From the sequence record NC_019399.1: a stretch of 64,000 bases of DNA. One strand, written 5' to 3'. The notes beneath the pieces are model-generated. The model was not told where the DNA came from. It made no database searches and saw only the letters and a program-made list of their open reading frames with translations. A program made the position numbers and the translations under genes. Origin of the DNA: Escherichia phage vB_EcoM_ACG-C40. How positions within the stretch are numbered: position 1 is the first letter of the stretch; each line of letters starts with the position of its first letter. Positions 3,365 to 47,815 of this stretch are shown here, piece after piece.

Positions 3365-3673
3365 CCTTGCGGCAACCTTGTCGGGGTTCCACCTGCTAAG
3401 GCAAGTGTTTGTACGAAACGCCGGGATTCGAACCCGGTTATTAAGCAGTTGACGCTACTCAATATTTTTTAAAAGGCCATATCTCGACCATATCCGAACG
3501 TTCCGTCAAAAACGCTACTCGGCTTACGGCAAAGATATTTCCTCGAATCGATAATTCGGTGCGCCGTTTCTGCTGTGATGTAAGGGGACATTAACAAAAC
3601 ATAAAGATTTATTAATGCCAGTCCTTAAACAGGGAACATCAGTCCGACGACTTACCGGTAGCGACCCGGTTTC
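3365..3673 (-). ncRNA. candidate small stable RNA region downstream of tRNA-Arg
   Basis: About 300 nt with no ORF, a tRNA-like T-arm (CCGGG-TTCGAAT-CCCGG on minus strand), duplicated GAGTAGCGT motif, ends at terminator 3334..3360. Confidence 0.25.
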
Positions 3674-4042: not shown

Positions 4043-4118
4043 TGGTCGAGGCAGTAGGGATCGAACCTACGACCCAGGACTTAGAAGGTCCTTGCTCTTC
4101 CTTCTGAGCTATGCCCCG
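4043..4118 (-). tRNA. tRNA-Arg (anticodon UCU)
   Basis: 76-nt cloverleaf folded by hand; anticodon loop CTTCTAA; T-loop TTCGATC; encoded CCA. Confidence 0.8.
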
Positions 4119-4122
4119 TAAT

Positions 4123-4198
4123 TGGGGTGACCGATGGGAGTCGAACCCATGACTACGAGAATCACAATCTCGAGTTCTACCAACTGAACTACGGCCAC
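4123..4198 (-). tRNA. tRNA-His (anticodon GUG)
   Basis: 76 nt; acceptor GTGGCCG/CGGTCAC; anticodon loop TTGTGAT; discriminator C; CCA encoded; no encoded G-1. Confidence 0.7.
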
Positions 4199-4312
4199 AT
4201 TAATACCTACTCCAACAATCATGATGTCTTCACACGAAATTAAGAGAAGAGTGATCAGTTCAACCCCTATAATCGCGTCAAGTAGATATTAATGTGACAG
4301 TTGTCACAAATT

Positions 4313-4387
4313 TGGCGGACGTGATAGGATTCGAACCTATAACCAATCGCTTAACAGGCGATCGCTCTGCCATTGAGCTACACATCC
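4313..4387 (-). tRNA. tRNA-Asn (anticodon GUU)
   Basis: 75 nt; anticodon stem ATCGC/GCGAT, loop CTGTTAA; discriminator G; CCA encoded. Confidence 0.75.
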
Positions 4388-4391
4388 AAAT

Positions 4392-4478
4392 TGGTGGGGA
4401 GTGATGGAGTCGAACCACCCGAGTCGCAATGACAATGAATTTACAGTCCACACCGCTACCTCTACGGGATAACTCCCC
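4392..4478 (-). tRNA. tRNA-Tyr (anticodon GUA), long variable arm
   Basis: 87 nt; anticodon loop CTGTAAA; T-arm GGTGG-TTCGACT-CCATC; discriminator A; CCA encoded. Confidence 0.7.
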
Positions 4479-4490
4479 TAATTCATAATT

Positions 4491-4565
4491 TGGTGGCCCT
4501 GGGTGGAATTGAACCACCATCTGGCGATTATGAGTCGCTTGCTTGAACCTTCCAGCTACAGGGCC
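4491..4565 (-). tRNA. tRNA with CAU anticodon (Met, or Ile if lysidine-modified)
   Basis: 75 nt; anticodon loop CTCATAA; T-arm GGTGG-TTCAATT-CCACC; CCA encoded. Confidence 0.7.
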
Positions 4566-4566
4566 T

Positions 4567-4642
4567 TGGTGCTGATTGACGGAATCGAACCGCCGACCTT
4601 CTCATTACAAGTGAGTTGCTCTACCTACTGAGCTAAATCAGC
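4567..4642 (-). tRNA. tRNA-Thr (anticodon UGU)
   Basis: 76 nt; D-arm GCTC-AGTAGGTA-GAGC; anticodon loop CTTGTAA; CCA encoded. Confidence 0.8.
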
Positions 4643-4647
4643 AAAAC

Positions 4648-4737
4648 TGGCGGAGGCGATAGGATTTGAACCTATGAGTCGCCGGAGCGACTGCCGGTTT
4701 TCAAGACCGGTGCATTAAACCACTCTGCCACACCTCC
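4648..4737 (-). tRNA. tRNA-Ser (anticodon UGA), long variable arm
   Basis: 90 nt; anticodon stem CCGGT/ACCGG, loop CTTGAAA; CCA encoded. Confidence 0.8.
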
Positions 4738-4739
4738 AG

Positions 4740-4813
4740 TCTCCATACAAGGATTTGAACCTTGGACCTCCTGATCCCAAATCAGGCGCTCTACCAAACT
4801 GAGCTACACGGAG
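4740..4813 (-). tRNA. tRNA-Pro (anticodon UGG), CCA not encoded
   Basis: 74 nt; anticodon stem CCTGA/TCAGG, loop TTTGGGA; T-arm CAAGG-TTCAAAT-CCTTG. Confidence 0.75.
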
Positions 4814-4823
4814 TAAATTGAAT

Positions 4824-4897
<74 letters not shown>

Positions 4898-4902
4898 AAA
4901 TT

Positions 4903-4989
4903 TGGTGCGAGAAGTGGGACTCGAACCCACAAGGAAATCATTCCGCAGCATTTTAAGTGCTGTGCCTTTACCAATTTGACCATTCTCGC
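4903..4989 (-). tRNA. tRNA-Leu (anticodon UAA), long variable arm
   Basis: 87 nt; anticodon stem CAGCA/TGCTG, loop CTTAAAA; CCA encoded. Confidence 0.8.
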
Positions 4990-4995
4990 GTTATA

Positions 4996-5628
4996 TTATT
5001 TATTACGTGAAAAAGACTGTTCTATCAATTCTGGACACTTTCGTTCTATCCATTTTCTAGCTTTTTGTGGGCTTATACCTATTATTTTAGCAGCTTTACT
5101 AACCCATCCAAATTTAGAATAATCGATTTTAACTAATTCTTCGTAAATTTCATCAGTTAAAATCTTTTCATTAATATTTACCAGTAAATGATATAATTTG
5201 TTATCATTAGCAATTTTAATGAATCTTTTATAGTTTCCGCCTTTACTTAAACCTAATGAAGTAATTGCAGATGATATAGTAGCCGAATTTAATAATGCGT
5301 TTAAAATTTCTTCATCACTAACATTATAACGCTTTTTATTATTTTTAATATTTTTACCAGCAAAAGTATCAGTTTGCGAATGACAGTTTGGACATAATAA
5401 TCTTAAATTTGATTTAAGATGATTTTTGTTATTTCCATCAATATGGTCTAATTGTAGAACAATATGCTTATTTTGCCATTTTGAAATTTTACAAATTGCA
5501 CACTCATATGGAAAAATATTTTCTTTTATTATTTTGTCTTTTAGCTTTCCTGTACTAAAATTTGGATGTTTTCCTTCAAAAATTTCAGCTAATTTAGTAT
5601 CCATAATATGATTCCCAATTATTAACAA
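4996..5628 (-). CDS. HNH homing endonuclease with C-terminal helix-turn-helix-like DNA-binding region
   Basis: Zinc-finger HNH motif CAICK...LQLDHIDGNNKNH...NLRLLCPNCH; ORF start at 5628 is TTG, first ATG is at 5604. Confidence 0.75.
   Translation of the reverse strand: MLIIGNHIMDTKLAEIFEGKHPNFSTGKLKDKIIKENIFPYECAICKISKWQNKHIVLQLDHIDGNNKNHLKSNLRLLCPNCHSQTDTFAGKNIKNNKKRYNVSDEEILNALLNSATISSAITSLGLSKGGNYKRFIKIANDNKLYHLLVNINEKILTDEIYEELVKIDYSKFGWVSKAAKIIGISPQKARKWIERKCPELIEQSFSRNK
4996..5628 (-). mobile_element. freestanding homing-endonuclease gene abutting the 5' end of the tRNA cluster
   Basis: HNH ORF ends 6 nt from tRNA-Leu. Confidence 0.5.
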
Positions 5629-9289: not shown

Positions 9290-9395
9290 ATATTCCTCAT
9301 AATGCTTTATAACTGTTGGTGGTATAATGGGTCTAAGTCCCTTCCATTCAATTCCATTTAGAACAAACAACAGAAAAGAATGGAAGATAATAGAA

Positions 9396-10220
9396 TTAGA
9401 TATTTGACCAGACTTTGTTTGCAGAGAAACGTTTTCCTTTTGAAACGAACTGCTGAAGTGGCATTAACACAACGTTCGCCCAGTCTTTCGGGGCGATTTC
9501 AACAAGGCTACCCATAATATTACCAGGTATATATGCCTTAATCATTTGGTCTGCACCCCTAAATCCTTTCACTTGACTCCAATCAATTTTTAATTTCGTT
9601 TTATTAGTAATAGTAGGTGTATTTGCATATTGCTTTAAAAGCTCTTCTAGAAACTGTTGACGAGCTTTAGGTGGAATATAGTGCAAGTTTAATCCGTACA
9701 TTAAATTGTGCTTACCTAAACCAAGGTAAATTATCAAAGGAAATTTATCCCAGTAAGGAAGAGTTTCCTTGTGTTTAGCATCATAAGCAAAAGCATATAT
9801 TCGTCCCGGCTGCGGGCGAACAACTTTATGTCCTTTTACTTGCTTAATAGTTTCAGCAAACCATTTTCTAGTTTTATTATTAATTGCTGCGCCTTCATTA
9901 CGAATTTTATCACGCAATGTTTGTCTGAATGAATTTATCATAAGCAGTTGTCTTTCTTGCTTATTGAGTTTATTCATTGGTTTTGATTCAAGCTTTTGAA
10001 TCTTTTCAGCTGTTTTAATTCCTGAAGCATATTTTGACATTGCTGAAGTAAACGTAGAGTATTTAATTCCTCTTTCTTCAGCAAATTGCTTTCCTGTCAT
10101 TCCTTTTGCTTTGGCCTTTTTATATTCAAGACCTATCTGAATCCATTTCTTTTCGTTTAATGATTGCTTAACCTTTGGAACTTGGGGAGTGCTTTCATTA
10201 ATTATTTGAAAAATAGCCAT
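9396..10220 (-). CDS. 2: gp2 DNA end protector
   Basis: 274-aa ORF in the T4 position between 3 and 4. Confidence 0.8.
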
Positions 10221-27255: not shown

Positions 27256-28957
<1,702 letters not shown>

Positions 28958-40216: not shown

Positions 40217-41500
40217 ATGGCTAAAATCAACGAACTTCTGCGCGAATCAACCACAACGAATAGCAACTCAATCGGTCGCCCAAATCTCGTTGCTTTGACT
40301 CGCGCTACCACTAAATTAATATATTCTGACATTGTAGCAACGCAAAGAACTAATCAACCTGTTGCTGCTTTTTATGGTATCAAATACCTTAACCCGGATA
40401 ACGAATTTACATTTAAAACTGGTGCTACTTACGCTGGCGAAGCTGGGTATGTAGACCGAGAACAAATCACAGAATTAACAGAAGAGTCTAAATTAACTCT
40501 CAATAAAGGCGATTTATTCAAATATAATAATATCGTTTATAAAGTATTAGAAGATACACCATTTGCTGATATTGAAGAAAGCGATTTAGAATTAGCTCTT
40601 CAGATTGCAATCGTTCTTTTAAAGGTTCGTCTATTTTCTGATGCTGCAGTAACAAGCAAATTTGAAAACTCTGATAGCGAAATTGCGGATGCTAGATTCC
40701 AGATTAATAAATGGCAAACCGCAGTTAAATCTCGTAAACTTAAAACTGGCATCACAGTTGAATTAGCACAAGATTTAGAAGCAAACGGATTCGATGCTCC
40801 TAATTTCTTGGAAGATTTGCTTGCAACTGAAATGGCGGATGAAATCAATAAAGATATTCTGCAGTCTTTGATTACAGTATCAAAACGCTATAAAGTTACA
40901 GGAATTACTGATACTGGATTCATTGATTTGAGTTATGCATCTGCACCTGAAGCTGGTCGTTCATTATACCGAATGGTGTGTGAAATGGTTTCACATATCC
41001 AGAAAGAATCAACTTATACAGCAACGTTCTGTGTTGCTTCAGCTCGTGCCGCTGCGATTCTTGCTGCATCAGGTTGGTTAAAACATAAACCAGAAGATGA
41101 CAAATATCTTTCACAAAATGCCTACGGGTTCTTAGCTAATGGTTTACCGCTTTATTGCGATACCAACAGTCCATTAGATTATGTAATCGTTGGCGTAGTA
41201 GAAAATATTGGTGAAAAAGAAATTGTTGGATCAATTTTCTATGCTCCGTATACAGAAGGTCTTGACTTAGATGACCCTGAACATGTAGGTGCATTTAAAG
41301 TTGTTGTTGATCCAGAAAGCTTACAACCGTCTATCGGTTTATTAGTTAGATATGCTTTATCAGCAAATCCTTATACCGTAGCAAAAGATGAAAAAGAAGC
41401 AAGAGTAATTGATGGTGGAGATATGGATAAAATGGCGGGTCGTTCAGATTTGTCTGTTTTATTAGGTGTTAAGCTACCAAAAATTATCATTGATGAATAA
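40217..41500 (+). CDS. 24: gp24 capsid vertex protein
   Basis: 427 aa; gp23 paralog. Confidence 0.95.
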   Translation: MAKINELLRESTTTNSNSIGRPNLVALTRATTKLIYSDIVATQRTNQPVAAFYGIKYLNPDNEFTFKTGATYAGEAGYVDREQITELTEESKLTLNKGDLFKYNNIVYKVLEDTPFADIEESDLELALQIAIVLLKVRLFSDAAVTSKFENSDSEIADARFQINKWQTAVKSRKLKTGITVELAQDLEANGFDAPNFLEDLLATEMADEINKDILQSLITVSKRYKVTGITDTGFIDLSYASAPEAGRSLYRMVCEMVSHIQKESTYTATFCVASARAAAILAASGWLKHKPEDDKYLSQNAYGFLANGLPLYCDTNSPLDYVIVGVVENIGEKEIVGSIFYAPYTEGLDLDDPEHVGAFKVVVDPESLQPSIGLLVRYALSANPYTVAKDEKEARVIDGGDMDKMAGRSDLSVLLGVKLPKIIIDE

Positions 41501-41504
41501 AACA

Positions 41505-41532
41505 AAGGGACCGAAAGGTCCCTTTTTTATTT
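41505..41532. terminator. bidirectional rho-independent terminator between convergent gene 24 and rnlB
   Basis: AAAGGGACC-GAAA-GGTCCCTTT with T-rich flanks on both strands. Confidence 0.65.
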
Positions 41533-42535
41533 AACTTACCAATTCAATCCAAGCCGGACGAAGTACATCTTGTACCATTTTAACTAATTCCTTCTTAATC
41601 AAAGAAGGATTATCCGCTTGAGTTAGAGTAATACCTTCACGAGAAGTTTCTTCCAAAATATCTTGAACAGTTAGCCCCATCACCTTTCCAAAATCTTTTG
41701 GACCAATTTCACCAATTTTAGAAATAACGTTATTTACTCGGTTCAGTGTAACGTAGCAAGCTAAAATTCCCACCAATTTGTTATCAGCTTCTGATAGTTC
41801 AACTTTAGCTTTAATAGGCTTATCAGACTTTTTCTTTTCACTAAATTTGGAATTCTTGCATTTGATGGCTACACGATTTCCATTATGAAGTCAAGAAGGA
41901 TAACAAGGTTTCAATACATATCCTTCAGCGGTAAATACTTCGCCTTTGGCTTCAGCTTTCCAAACACATTTGTTAGCGTCAACTAATCCAGCATGGTCTA
42001 CTGTAAAATTATAATCTTGGACGACAGAATCTAAATCATTTGGCAATTTAATAAGCTCTTCAAATTTACCGCGACCTAAAAGTGGAGCCATTTTAAATTT
42101 AAATGTATTACAAAATGATTCCATCATATAATCATCGACATAAGTCACATCACCACTTTCTGTAGTGACAATAATGTCAAATACATAAAAATCTTTATCG
42201 CCATAATCGACATTCTTCTGAATGCCAGGTCCAGCGAATTCGCCAAAGACTTGATAAGATACAACCGCTGAGGTTTCCATAATATCTTGTACTGCTTTAA
42301 TAGAATCTTCGTAATTCTTTAGAATAATTTCATACCCAAAGAAATCTTCAGCAGGAAGAATCGGTCCAGTACGTTTAGCGCAAGTTACTTTATCACGCTC
42401 AATAATCAATGAGAAATTTGTGCCGTGAATCTTTTCACGAGCTACCCACTCCCCACCAGTCAATCCCAAGCTATAAAGTTTTTCAATAAATTTAGAGTTG
42501 TAATGATTTTCAAGACTGCTATACTTTTTAAACAT
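41531..42535 (-). pseudogene. rnlB: RNA ligase 2 (rnlB) interrupted by an in-frame TGA at codon 215
   Basis: ORF 41891..42535 (214 aa, KxHGxN with K35) stops at TGA 41891..41893; same frame continues ...LHNGNRVAIK... into ORF 41531..41776; total 334 codons. Confidence 0.8.
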
Positions 42536-42544
42536 AATTAATCC

Positions 42545-42823
42545 TCAAAATGTAATTTCTAACCAATCACCATCACGCTGATCACTATTGACTTTAAAGC
42601 TGAATCCTTCTTTTCTCAGCCAATCACCAATTTCTTCAGTAATCAATTTATCACGAGCAATACAATAATAACTAAAATGTGTTTTACCTTGTTCAGCTGC
42701 TTTATTAGCAAGTTCCGAAAAATCTTTAATAAAACACTCTAGCTTAAACTGTTTACTTTTAAGTGCTTTTTCGCGCAATTGATTAGCAAAAGATTCATTT
42801 TCATAAAGATCATACTGTTCCAT
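42545..42823 (-). CDS. hypothetical protein (92 aa)
   Basis: Intact ORF between rnlB and hoc. Confidence 0.6.
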   Translation of the reverse strand: MEQYDLYENESFANQLREKALKSKQFKLECFIKDFSELANKAAEQGKTHFSYYCIARDKLITEEIGDWLRKEGFSFKVNSDQRDGDWLEITF

Positions 42824-43110: not shown

Positions 43111-43129
43111 ATGATTATGATTATGATTA
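43109..43129 (-). repeat. hexanucleotide tandem repeat (TAATCA)x3.5 giving four in-frame TAA stops at the hoc 3' end
   Basis: Minus strand CCA-TAA-TCA-TAA-TCA-TAA-TCA-TAA. Confidence 0.7.
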
Positions 43130-44258
43130 TGGATAGGTGTAGATGATACCAGTTTCTAAAGCAGTTTTATGAATGATGTATCCATTGCGTGATTCTTGAA
43201 CATCAACTTCTGGATAGTCTTTCATCATCTTCTGAAGAGTGTAACGATGCAGGTAGTATTTACTGTCTGGATCTTCAGTTTTCCAATCTTTACCTTCTTC
43301 GGTCATTTTTTGGATTTCATCCATAACCCACCAACCGCACCAGATATAAGCTGAAGTACGATGTGGAAGAGGATGAACATAAGGTAGTTCACCTTCTGGT
43401 TCTGGAGCAACTTTATCAGTTACCTGAACTTGACCTTCTGCTGTAATAGTTTTGCTATCATAATCAGTTGCAGTAACGACAGCAGTAACTTCAATAGTTT
43501 GACTTCCAACAGATGAGGTATCGACAGTATATACGTTAGTTGACCCTTCTACAGGAGAAGAATCTTTCTTCCATGAGTAAGTAATTTGTGCTTCTTCTGG
43601 AGCACCCGTAACATTAGCCGTAAATGTAGCCGAAGCATCTTGCTGAACATTAATAGAAGGAGGAGTCAATGTAACCTGTGGATTCATTGTCTTCTTATTA
43701 ACTGTCAATGATACTTCATTAGAAGTAACTTCCTTTTCATTGTAATTTTCAGCAGTTACTTGCGCTACACACTTGATTTTTTTTAACTCCACTTGTGTCA
43801 GGAGTGTAATTGAATGTAGCGTCAGTTGCTTTGTCTACAGGAGAACCGTCAACGTGCCATTGATACGTAGGGTTTGCACCTGATGGCTGTGAAGCTAAGG
43901 CAGCGGTAAATTCAATTGGAGTTCCAATCACTCCAGCATCAGGGCTACCAGGAGTTACAGCTAAAGTAGTTGTTTGTGTCTTATTTTGAACTGTGATAGT
44001 TGTACTAATTTCTGCTGTTTCAGGTTCAGATTCTGCAACTTGATTGGTTGCAACTACTTTAATAGTCTTTTGACCGGCAGGTCCTTTTAGTACATAACTA
44101 AAAGTTGCTGACGTTTCTTCCTGTGGAGCGTCGTCTACAGTCCAAGCATATGTAATAGATCCATCTCCAGTTTGACCACTGGGTGTAGCAGTAAACTGCT
44201 GAGTCTGATCTATAACTCCAGTAGGTGTTTTAGGAGTTATATCAACTGTAAAAGTCAT
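43127..44258 (-). pseudogene. hoc: hoc outer capsid protein with a +1 frameshift in an A8 homopolymer
   Basis: N-terminal ORF 43749..44258 and C-terminal ORF 43127..43792 are both Hoc-like; frames switch at 43777..43784. Confidence 0.8.
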
Positions 44259-44997: not shown

Positions 44998-45615
44998 ATG
45001 TACCACTTTGTATATGAAACAACAAATCTAATAAATGGTAAAAAGTATATAGGAAAACACTCTACTGATGACTTGAATGATGGTTACCTTGGTTCCGGTA
45101 AGGCAATTCAGCAGGCTATAAAGAAATATGGTGAAAACAATTTCTCTAGAACAATACTAAAAGAGTTTAAAACTTCCGAAGAAGCGTACATGTATGAAGA
45201 AGAAATTATAACTCCTGAAATAATAAAAAGCAAAAATTATTATAATATGAAACCTGGCGGAATTGGTGGAATTGTTATGACTACAGAGGTTATAGCAAAG
45301 ATGAAAGAATCTTCCGCTAAGAGATTTGAAAACTCACCGGGCACGGTATTAGGTACAACTTGTTACACTAATGGAACTAAAAATATTTTTATTAAGCCTG
45401 GAGAACTTGTTCCAGAAGGATTTGTAAAAGGGATGGTTCATCCTAATAGAAAGTCCAGAAAAGGATGTAAAGTCAAACCGACTACCACAGGAACTTTTTG
45501 GGTCAATAATGGTGCAATAAATAAATTAATACAACCAGACGGTATTATTCCCGACGGATTTATTAAAGGTCGTCTCATGAAAAGAGATTCTAAAGGCAAA
45601 TTTAGTAAGGCATAA
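44998..45615 (+). CDS. segE: GIY-YIG homing endonuclease, SegE-like
   Basis: 205 aa; YHFVYETTNLINGKKYIGKH...YLGSG...EEAYMYEEE...YNMKPGG. Confidence 0.75.
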   Translation: MYHFVYETTNLINGKKYIGKHSTDDLNDGYLGSGKAIQQAIKKYGENNFSRTILKEFKTSEEAYMYEEEIITPEIIKSKNYYNMKPGGIGGIVMTTEVIAKMKESSAKRFENSPGTVLGTTCYTNGTKNIFIKPGELVPEGFVKGMVHPNRKSRKGCKVKPTTTGTFWVNNGAINKLIQPDGIIPDGFIKGRLMKRDSKGKFSKA

Positions 45616-45617
45616 TT

Positions 45618-47126
45618 ATGGATATTAAAGTACATTTTCACGACTTCAGTCATGTACGCATCGATTGTGAAGAGAGCACGTTCCACGAATTAAGAGATTT
45701 CTTTTCGTTTGAGGCCGATGGATATAGATTTAACCCTCGCTTCAGATATGGCAACTGGGATGGACGAATTCGTCTTTTAGATTATAATCGCCTTCTTCCA
45801 TTCGGTTTAGTCGGGCAAATTAAAAAGTTCTGCGATAACTTTGGCTATAAAGCCTGGATTGACCCACAGATTAACGAAAAAGAAGAATTATCAAGAAAAG
45901 ATTTTGATGAATGGCTTTCTAAATTAGAAATCTATTCAGGAAATAAAAGAATTGAACCGCATTGGTATCAAAAAGATGCAGTGTTCGAAGGATTAGTTAA
46001 TCGTCGTAGAATTCTTAATCTTCCAACATCCGCAGGTAAATCTTTAATTCAAGCTTTGCTTGCTCGGTATTATTTGGAAAATTATGAAGGCAAAATTCTT
46101 ATTATTGTTCCAACAACTGCTCTGACAACTCAGATGGCTGATGACTTTGTTGACTATCGTTTATTCAGTCATGCAATGATAAAGAAAATCGGTGGTGGAG
46201 CATCAAAAGATGATAAATATAAAAATGATGCACCGGTCGTTGTTGGTACATGGCAAACTGTAGTAAAACAACCGAAAGAATGGTTCTCACAGTTTGGAAT
46301 GATGATGAATGATGAATGTCATCTTGCTACAGGAAAAAGTATTTCATCTATCATATCAGGTTTAAATAACTGCATGTTCAAATTCGGTTTGTCTGGTTCA
46401 TTACGTGATGGCAAAGCCAATATCATGCAGTATGTTGGAATGTTCGGTGAAATATTTAAGCCAGTAACGACCTCTAAATTAATGGAAGATGGACAAGTAA
46501 CTGAGTTAAAAATTAATAGTATTTTTCTTCGCTATCCCGATGAGTTCACTACTAAATTAAAGGGAAAAACTTATCAAGAAGAAATAAAAATTATTACTGG
46601 GCTTAGTAAAAGAAATAAATGGATCGCTAAATTAGCTATTAAGCTTGCGCAAAAAGATGAAAACGCTTTTGTCATGTTTAAACATGTATCGCACGGTAAA
46701 GCTATTTTCGATTTAATTAAAAATGAATACGATAAAGTTTATTACGTATCAGGGGAAGTTGATACCGAAACCCGCAATATAATGAAAACCTTAGCTGAAA
46801 ATGGTAAAGGAATAATTATAGTAGCGAGTTATGGTGTATTTTCTACTGGTATTTCAGTTAAAAATCTGCATCATGTTGTTTTAGCGCACGGTGTTAAATC
46901 TAAAATTATTGTATTGCAAACAATAGGTCGCGTATTACGTAAGCATGGTTCTAAGACAATAGCAACAGTCTGGGACCTCATAGATGACGCGGGCGTGGTT
47001 TCTAAATCAAAAACATCTTCTAAAAAATACTCGCATTTAAACTATCTTTTAAAACATGGACTTGATCGTATTCAGCGTTATGCTGATGAAAAGTTTAATT
47101 ATGTGATGAAAGAGGTTAAACTTTGA
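45618..47126 (+). CDS. uvsW: UvsW DNA/RNA helicase
   Basis: 502 aa; motifs LPTSAGKS and DECH. Confidence 0.9.
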   Translation: MDIKVHFHDFSHVRIDCEESTFHELRDFFSFEADGYRFNPRFRYGNWDGRIRLLDYNRLLPFGLVGQIKKFCDNFGYKAWIDPQINEKEELSRKDFDEWLSKLEIYSGNKRIEPHWYQKDAVFEGLVNRRRILNLPTSAGKSLIQALLARYYLENYEGKILIIVPTTALTTQMADDFVDYRLFSHAMIKKIGGGASKDDKYKNDAPVVVGTWQTVVKQPKEWFSQFGMMMNDECHLATGKSISSIISGLNNCMFKFGLSGSLRDGKANIMQYVGMFGEIFKPVTTSKLMEDGQVTELKINSIFLRYPDEFTTKLKGKTYQEEIKIITGLSKRNKWIAKLAIKLAQKDENAFVMFKHVSHGKAIFDLIKNEYDKVYYVSGEVDTETRNIMKTLAENGKGIIIVASYGVFSTGISVKNLHHVVLAHGVKSKIIVLQTIGRVLRKHGSKTIATVWDLIDDAGVVSKSKTSSKKYSHLNYLLKHGLDRIQRYADEKFNYVMKEVKL

Positions 47127-47815
47127 ATTATAAATTAATATATGATAATTTAATTAATAGAGCCCAGAATCGGGCTCGCCTTAATGGATACACTGAAACT
47201 CATCATATAATTCCTAGATGTATGGGTGGTACAGATGATAGGTGTAATTTAGTAGAACTAACAGCTGAAGAACATTTTATAGCCCATAAACTTTTAGCTA
47301 AAATTCATCCAAATCATTACGGTATAATTAAAGCCGTTATATGTATGGGAATGAACTCAAAGACTCATGAAAGACACGTTAATAAATCTTACGCATGGGA
47401 ACGTCGTAAAATGGCAGAACTTCAATCCGGTGAAGGTAATCCATTTTACGGAAAACACCATACGGAAGAACATAAACAATATATGTCAAAACTCATGAAA
47501 AGTCGTCCAATTACATGGGGAAATAAAATTAGTAAAACTAAAAGAATGAACCCAACAAAATGGACCGAAGAAGCTAAAAGATTACATTCAATCAATCAAT
47601 CGGGTAAAAATAATGGCATGTATGGAAGGAAACATTCCGCTAAATCTATTCAGAAAATTAAAGATAACATGCCAGATAATTCAGGAGCTAATAACCCAGC
47701 TGCTAAACCTATAGAAGTAAATGGTGTTAAATATAAATGTATGAAAGACGCTTCTAAAGCTACTGGATTATCAATGTACAAACTAAGAATACTCAGAAAA
47801 ACAGTTAATTTATAA
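47123..47815 (+). CDS. HNH homing endonuclease with NUMOD-like DNA-binding repeats
   Basis: HNH core THHIIPRCMGGTDDRCNLVELTAEEHFIAH; repeats GNPFYGKHHTEEHK and NNGMYGRKHSAKS; ATGA overlap with the uvsW stop. Confidence 0.8.
   Translation: MNYKLIYDNLINRAQNRARLNGYTETHHIIPRCMGGTDDRCNLVELTAEEHFIAHKLLAKIHPNHYGIIKAVICMGMNSKTHERHVNKSYAWERRKMAELQSGEGNPFYGKHHTEEHKQYMSKLMKSRPITWGNKISKTKRMNPTKWTEEAKRLHSINQSGKNNGMYGRKHSAKSIQKIKDNMPDNSGANNPAAKPIEVNGVKYKCMKDASKATGLSMYKLRILRKTVNL
47123..47815 (+). mobile_element. freestanding homing-endonuclease gene inserted between uvsW and uvsW.1
   Basis: HNH ORF lies exactly between two genes that I recall as adjacent in T4. Confidence 0.55.

Follow-up and report, generated by a model that had tools for sequence, protein, structure and literature searches.

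The RNA ligase 2 gene (rnlB) of Escherichia phage vB_EcoM_ACG-C40 is interrupted by a single in-frame TGA, and the interruption is probably a genuine and very recent nonsense knockout of a dispensable accessory gene, not a new mechanism. We analysed a window of 64,000 nucleotides of this genome (sequence record NC_019399.1), in which rnlB occupies positions 41531-42535 on the minus strand. Translation of the frame gives a single run of 334 codons ending in TAA, with one stop inside, a TGA at codon 215 (41893..41891; changed base, position 41891) whose fourth base is C. In the list of open reading frames the gene appears as a 214-aa ORF at 41891..42535 and a remnant ORF at 41531..41776, both in the same frame. 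The features of the locus are as follows.

41531..42535, minus strand: orthologue of rnlB (T4 gene 24.1); 334 codons plus TAA, with one stop inside; gap-free against 2HVQ; 99.4% nucleotide identity to rnlB of phage 232Ecol030PP
41891..42535, minus strand: the ORF that is actually open, rnlB codons 1-214 plus TGA; most of the adenylyltransferase domain, ending before motif V
41891..41893, minus strand: premature opal codon 215 (TGA then C); TGG (Trp) in T4 and in six of six close relatives
42416..42433, minus strand: nucleotidyltransferase motif I, KIHGTN, with the adenylylated Lys35; residues 35-40, invariant across 20 aligned family members
41849..41875, minus strand: motif V, RVAIKCKNS, with K225 and K227; past the stop and untranslated unless there is readthrough; nearly invariant in the family
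41570..41800, minus strand: Rnl2 C-terminal domain, residues ~246-322; sequence intact (Pfam T4_Rnl2_C, PF18043, E 7.9e-25)
42542..42546, minus strand: Shine-Dalgarno sequence GAGGA, 6 nt 5′ of the rnlB ATG, overlapping the stop of gene 24.2; read from the sequence
41497..41522, no strand assigned: GC-rich hairpin GGGACC-TTTC-GGTCCC with A and T runs on its flanks, between the convergent genes rnlB and 24

Apart from the internal stop, the frame closely resembles T4 Rnl2 (gp24.1; PDB 2HVQ, 1S68). The two proteins share their length, motifs I-V and the C-terminal domain, and they align without a gap (2HVQ, E 2e-223). Relative to the crystallised T4 enzyme, there are only four differences, namely A76E, N193K, W215stop and R217H. 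Codon 215 is TGG in T4 and TGA here, so that the normal product here is 214 aa long and lacks motif V and the C-terminal domain. The genomic position is also that of T4, with rnlB downstream of inh-hoc-24.3-24.2 and convergent with gene 24. The expression signals of rnlB, its Shine-Dalgarno sequence and terminator, are intact; specifically, the hairpin at 41497..41522 is an intact bidirectional intrinsic terminator, and in phage DalCa the annotation gives the matching hairpin as a rho-independent terminator for either strand.

The first-pass annotation, made from the letters and the ORF list alone, had read the two ORFs as pieces of one 334-codon frame without an indel, and the translation and the gap-free alignment to T4 agree on this point. 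Its identification of the gene as RNA ligase 2, with Lys35 in the motif KIHGTN, is borne out by the end-to-end match to T4 Rnl2. It had also put a Trp at this place in T4 and proposed a one-base change from TGG to TGA at codon 215, which is what the alignment to T4 and the TGG of all six close relatives show.

The window belongs to a Tequatrovirus. In the phage collection, no record exceeds 98.0% identity to a 24-kb piece around the stop; Shigella phage ESh30 comes closest, and the Yersinia PYps phages, HY03 and T6 rank next. The closest rnlB that we found is that of phage 232Ecol030PP (PP355090, WZX06152), which differs at 6 of 1005 nucleotides, five of these differences being synonymous. Its TGG is intact, its Rnl2 is the same protein except at residue 215, and it is annotated as a full-length RNA ligase 2. 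At rnlB position 645, this genome has A and the close relatives have G (6/6), and this A is the sole private base of the genome within rnlB, which indicates that the lesion is very recent. Furthermore, 20 of the 26 variable sites of rnlB among close relatives fall at third codon positions, indicating that the gene is otherwise under purifying selection among its intact close relatives. We propose that a recent G:C-to-A:T transition turned the TGG of Trp215 into the opal codon TGA.

The family alignment places the lesion beside a strongly conserved element. The T4 group has Trp at position 215, where members further away have Phe, Tyr, Ile or Leu, and the motif V segment directly 3′ of this position, RVAIKCKNSKFSEKKKSDK, is nearly invariant. 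The fourth base C at codon 215 and the flanks of the codon are a context inherited from the TGG-bearing ancestor.

The TGA allele itself is unrecorded, although the phenomenon is an ordinary one. Phage records were searched with 61 bases centred on the TGA, and none of the 480 matching records contained the exact 61-mer, 76 of them differing by exactly one base. The exact 214-aa product had no match in an index of 153 billion genes, and the site had no match whatever in 5,426 complete E. coli genomes. A TGA-bearing 26-mer had no match in IMG/VR or JGI metagenomes, a search of little power given that the TGG control matched one IMG/VR contig only. In addition, a family search with the N-terminal 214 residues returned 120 clusters, almost all of 330-341 aa. 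None of them stops near residue 214, and the few shorter members end elsewhere. A natural end of the protein at this position, which the first-pass annotation had named as one of two findings that would overturn its interpretation, is thereby ruled out.

The TGA at codon 215 is likely to be real, judging from the pattern of variation around it. In the 3.7 kb around the stop (gene 24, rnlB, 24.2, 24.3 and the 3′ part of hoc), there are eight private substitutions relative to six relatives, seven of them synonymous and the eighth the nonsense change. Since random base-call errors would be mostly non-synonymous, the private variation in this segment appears to be genuine and filtered by selection. 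Across the whole window, we compared ~78 genes held in common with ESh30, and only rnlB, by its stop, and hoc, by a frameshift, are disrupted. Both of these genes are dispensable or thought to be so, and the large essential structural genes, which make up most of the window, are untouched.

The competing explanation is a sequencing, assembly or consensus artefact, in which the true codon of the phage is TGG, the A at 41891 being either miscalled or a minority variant that entered the consensus. The TGA allele is found in this one sequence only, and the nearby hoc frameshift consists of an added A within the window's sole homopolymer of 8 bases, a typical error of long-read or flow chemistry. 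The cytosines of T-even phages are heavily modified, which can disturb some base callers, and on the plus strand the rnlB change reads C to T. However, the rnlB stop lies outside any homopolymer, and the other seven private substitutions of the 3.7 kb, being all synonymous, look like variation that has passed selection and not like noise. Moreover, the ~78 other genes contain neither a stop nor a frameshift, and the two lesions that do occur are both in genes known or thought to be dispensable, with the large essential genes intact. We therefore consider an artefact unlikely, though it keeps a real minority share of the probability. The earlier statement that the neighbouring essential genes are intact stands for gp23, gp24 and others, which are whole, but it does not extend to hoc, a nearby non-essential gene that is frameshifted.

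The head-decoration gene hoc (43127-44258, minus strand) shares its strand with rnlB and is located upstream of it, with 1.9 kb between the two lesions. Two ORFs represent the gene, 43749..44258 (169 aa) and 43127..43792 (221 aa), and their frames differ. The break consists of one extra A, a run of eight here against seven in the closest intact relative (MZ234013). No homopolymer in the 64-kb window is longer than this run, which reads T8 on the plus strand at 43777-43784. The frameshift could stem from real slippage in this non-essential gene or from a sequencing error in the homopolymer, and it does not settle the question of reality versus error, because the longest homopolymer is the likeliest site for slippage and for a miscall alike.

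At the protein level, translation would stop after residue 214 and yield a fragment of ~24 kDa that retains motif I (Lys35) and lacks motif V and the C-terminal domain. The N-terminal fragment matches the Pfam RNA_ligase profile (PF09414) over residues 29-211 (E 2.5e-22; 80 bits against a cutoff of 27) and spans profile positions 2-158 of 171, the final 13 positions being lost to the stop. The T4_Rnl2_C domain (PF18043) lies wholly past the codon-215 stop. The motif V codons (K225, K227) are present and unchanged, but they are 3′ of the in-frame TGA and are not joined to motif I without readthrough. Of the features expected of an Rnl2-family gene, the sequences for motif I, the ligase domain and the C-terminal domain are thus all present, and an uninterrupted frame of ~330-340 codons joining motif I to motif V is absent.

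The biochemistry of T4 Rnl2 bears on what such a fragment could do. Residues R55, K225 and K227 are key to adenylylation of the enzyme (PMC3149579), and the C-terminal domain is needed for step 2 of ligation and for nick binding (PMC3884662). The commercial truncated T4 Rnl2 (1-249) is alike in being shortened at the C terminus with the adenylyltransferase fold retained (PMC3149579, PMC3884662). This protein keeps K225 and K227 and performs steps 1 and 3 of ligation only (PMC3149579; PMC3884662), whereas the 1-214 fragment here is cut off short of motif V and is expected to have no activity. Specifically, because both lysines and the C-terminal domain are missing, the 214-residue fragment should be inactive, with neither self-adenylylation nor nick sealing, a prediction drawn from the 1-249 truncation and from point mutants of the enzyme. 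We also considered reinitiation that would rebuild the enzyme from two pieces. This was rejected, as the nearest in-frame start-type codons, TTG254 and GTG255, would give the C-terminal domain only and leave motif V untranslated.

A low level of full-length ligase may nevertheless be made. Poole, Brown and Tate are said to have found in 1995 that UGA followed by C, the arrangement at codon 215, is the weakest termination context. In E. coli K-12, readthrough of UGA by Trp-tRNA amounts to ~2% at 37 °C and 4% at 25 °C (PMC10570021), and at UGA the RF2 of K-12 is a poorer terminator than its B-strain counterpart, the fourth base also being of importance (PMC5373646). Competition between Trp-tRNA and RF2 at the UGA, with the C after it favouring readthrough, would let a small percentage of the protein reach full length with the Trp restored, and would do so without being a regulatory device. 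It is plausible that on some hosts a few percent of fully wild-type Rnl2 arises in this way, through insertion of Trp at codon 215.

Any such leak appears to be a passive by-product, with no sign of selection for readthrough. The tRNA cluster of the window (4043-4989) contains no tRNA with a UCA anticodon (TCA), which could act as an opal suppressor, and no Trp tRNA. Folding of the 106 nt that start at the stop is no better than that of shuffled sequences (z = −0.40), giving no indication of RNA structure 3′ of the stop. We judge the leak to be incidental because neither a suppressor tRNA nor a stimulatory structure was found, and because the TGA is not conserved. The first-pass annotation had offered two alternatives, a recently inactivated accessory gene and a leaky opal codon. 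The leaky codon is biochemically plausible, as Trp-tRNA restores the wild-type residue, but it fits less well than recent inactivation, which has on its side the sole private base, the loss of motif V and the C-terminal domain, and the breaks of rnlB elsewhere.

A stronger version of the readthrough reading holds that the opal codon is maintained by selection, either for a low level of full-length Rnl2 (a few percent, dependent on the RF2 allele of the host) or for a functional 214-aa protein. If this were true, the 214-aa fragment might, for example, bind ATP or RNA and thereby serve as a decoy against host defence. UGA-C is said to be a weak terminator, and the 119 codons past the TGA are still fully intact. 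Furthermore, the near-cognate reader of UGA, Trp-tRNA, would restore exactly the ancestral residue (PMC10570021). Against these points, the TGA is conserved nowhere, being found in none of the 480 phage records and having no counterpart in the protein clusters (0/120 end near residue 214). It is the sole private change of the gene, so that the frame past it has stayed intact for want of time to decay and not through selection, and its flanks are the same as in the TGG-bearing relatives. The region 3′ of the TGA shows no better-than-shuffled fold, as noted above, and the cluster is without a UCA-anticodon or Trp tRNA. We consider selected readthrough to be very improbable.

A further explanation is that UGA is read as Trp throughout the genome (genetic code 4), or that the phage encodes a suppressor. 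In its favour, some phages reassign stop codons, and the stop in rnlB does replace a Trp codon. However, no other in-frame stop occurs among the ~78 genes compared with ESh30, and TGA ends genes in the normal way, for example gene 24.2 directly upstream of rnlB. The ten tRNAs are standard and none has a UCA anticodon, and the genome is 98% identical to coliphages that use the standard code. The ~78 genes without an in-frame stop and the tRNA set effectively refute an alternative genetic code, and we give this explanation hardly any weight.

The preferred reading, a recent nonsense mutation in an accessory gene, has parallels in other phages. In the closely related Tequatrovirus vB_EcoM_DalCa (MH992510; L002 1601-2605), rnlB is likewise split by a single-base change to an opal codon, GGA to TGA at codon 283, and the halves are annotated as 'RNA ligase 3' and 'RNA ligase 2'. 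The DalCa stop removes part of the C-terminal domain only, whereas the stop described here removes motif V as well. In phage HY03 (NC_031047; L003 1601-2604), another close Tequatrovirus relative, a 1-nt deletion at codon 113 breaks rnlB, and the two parts are each annotated as an 'RNA ligase' coding sequence. The breaks in DalCa, in HY03 and here are independent events at different positions. Truncated Rnl2 also occurs in other long contigs, for example as the 238-aa product of Citrobacter phage CF1. Shortened Rnl2 products are present in the protein database (P0012, 285 aa; P0033, 156 aa; P0055, 278 aa; P0093, 238 aa).

In T4 infection, no biological function has yet been assigned to Rnl2 (PMC3884662). 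The knockout would be tolerated because Rnl2 is accessory, with no known requirement for growth. Taken on the sequence comparisons, rnlB appears to be useful in nature and expendable in the short term. Beside DalCa and HY03, the present genome adds one more natural case of T4-type phages tolerating the loss of RNA ligase 2, and a tolerated loss fits a role of Rnl2 that is probably host-specific. The most fitting description is that of a known accessory gene carrying a recent nonsense allele, an incipient pseudogene, and the appropriate annotation of the locus is rnlB with an internal stop (pseudogene or nonsense allele) instead of two hypothetical proteins. If the stop is real and the phage stock is available, the phage would provide a natural rnlB knockout for screening hosts for an Rnl2-dependent phenotype.

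The comparison with ESh30 also revealed differences in gene content. Three ESh30 genes, two encoding homing endonucleases and one a hypothetical protein, have no counterpart at the corresponding places of the window. These genes and places, with the ESh30 sequence pieces given by their labels L006 and L007, are as follows.

L006 10374-11186: ESh30-only gene; corresponding place in the window ~28182-28187
L007 9036-9695: ESh30-only gene; corresponding place in the window ~9290-9400
L007 13809-14474: ESh30-only gene; corresponding place in the window ~4100-4300

A tblastn search with these genes found only distant paralogues elsewhere in the window (47123-47581 and 44998-45582). Mobile endonuclease genes commonly form such a presence/absence mosaic among T-even phages.

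The tRNA cluster at 4043-4989 (minus strand) comprises ten genes, for Arg-TCT, His, Asn, Tyr, Met/Ile-CAT, Thr, Ser-TGA, Pro, Gly and Leu-TAA. The ESh30 cluster lacks the His, Asn and Tyr tRNAs; conversely, the tRNA-Gln that precedes tRNA-Leu in ESh30 is absent here, where unrelated sequence (4990-5100) takes its place. Just downstream of tRNA-Arg, ARAGORN reports at 3411-3506 (minus strand) a 96-nt 'tRNA-???' with a two-base anticodon, for which no Rfam family reaches threshold. In T4, the small stable RNAs C and D occupy the corresponding place. The region is ~95% identical to ESh30, in which it is annotated with short hypothetical ORFs only.
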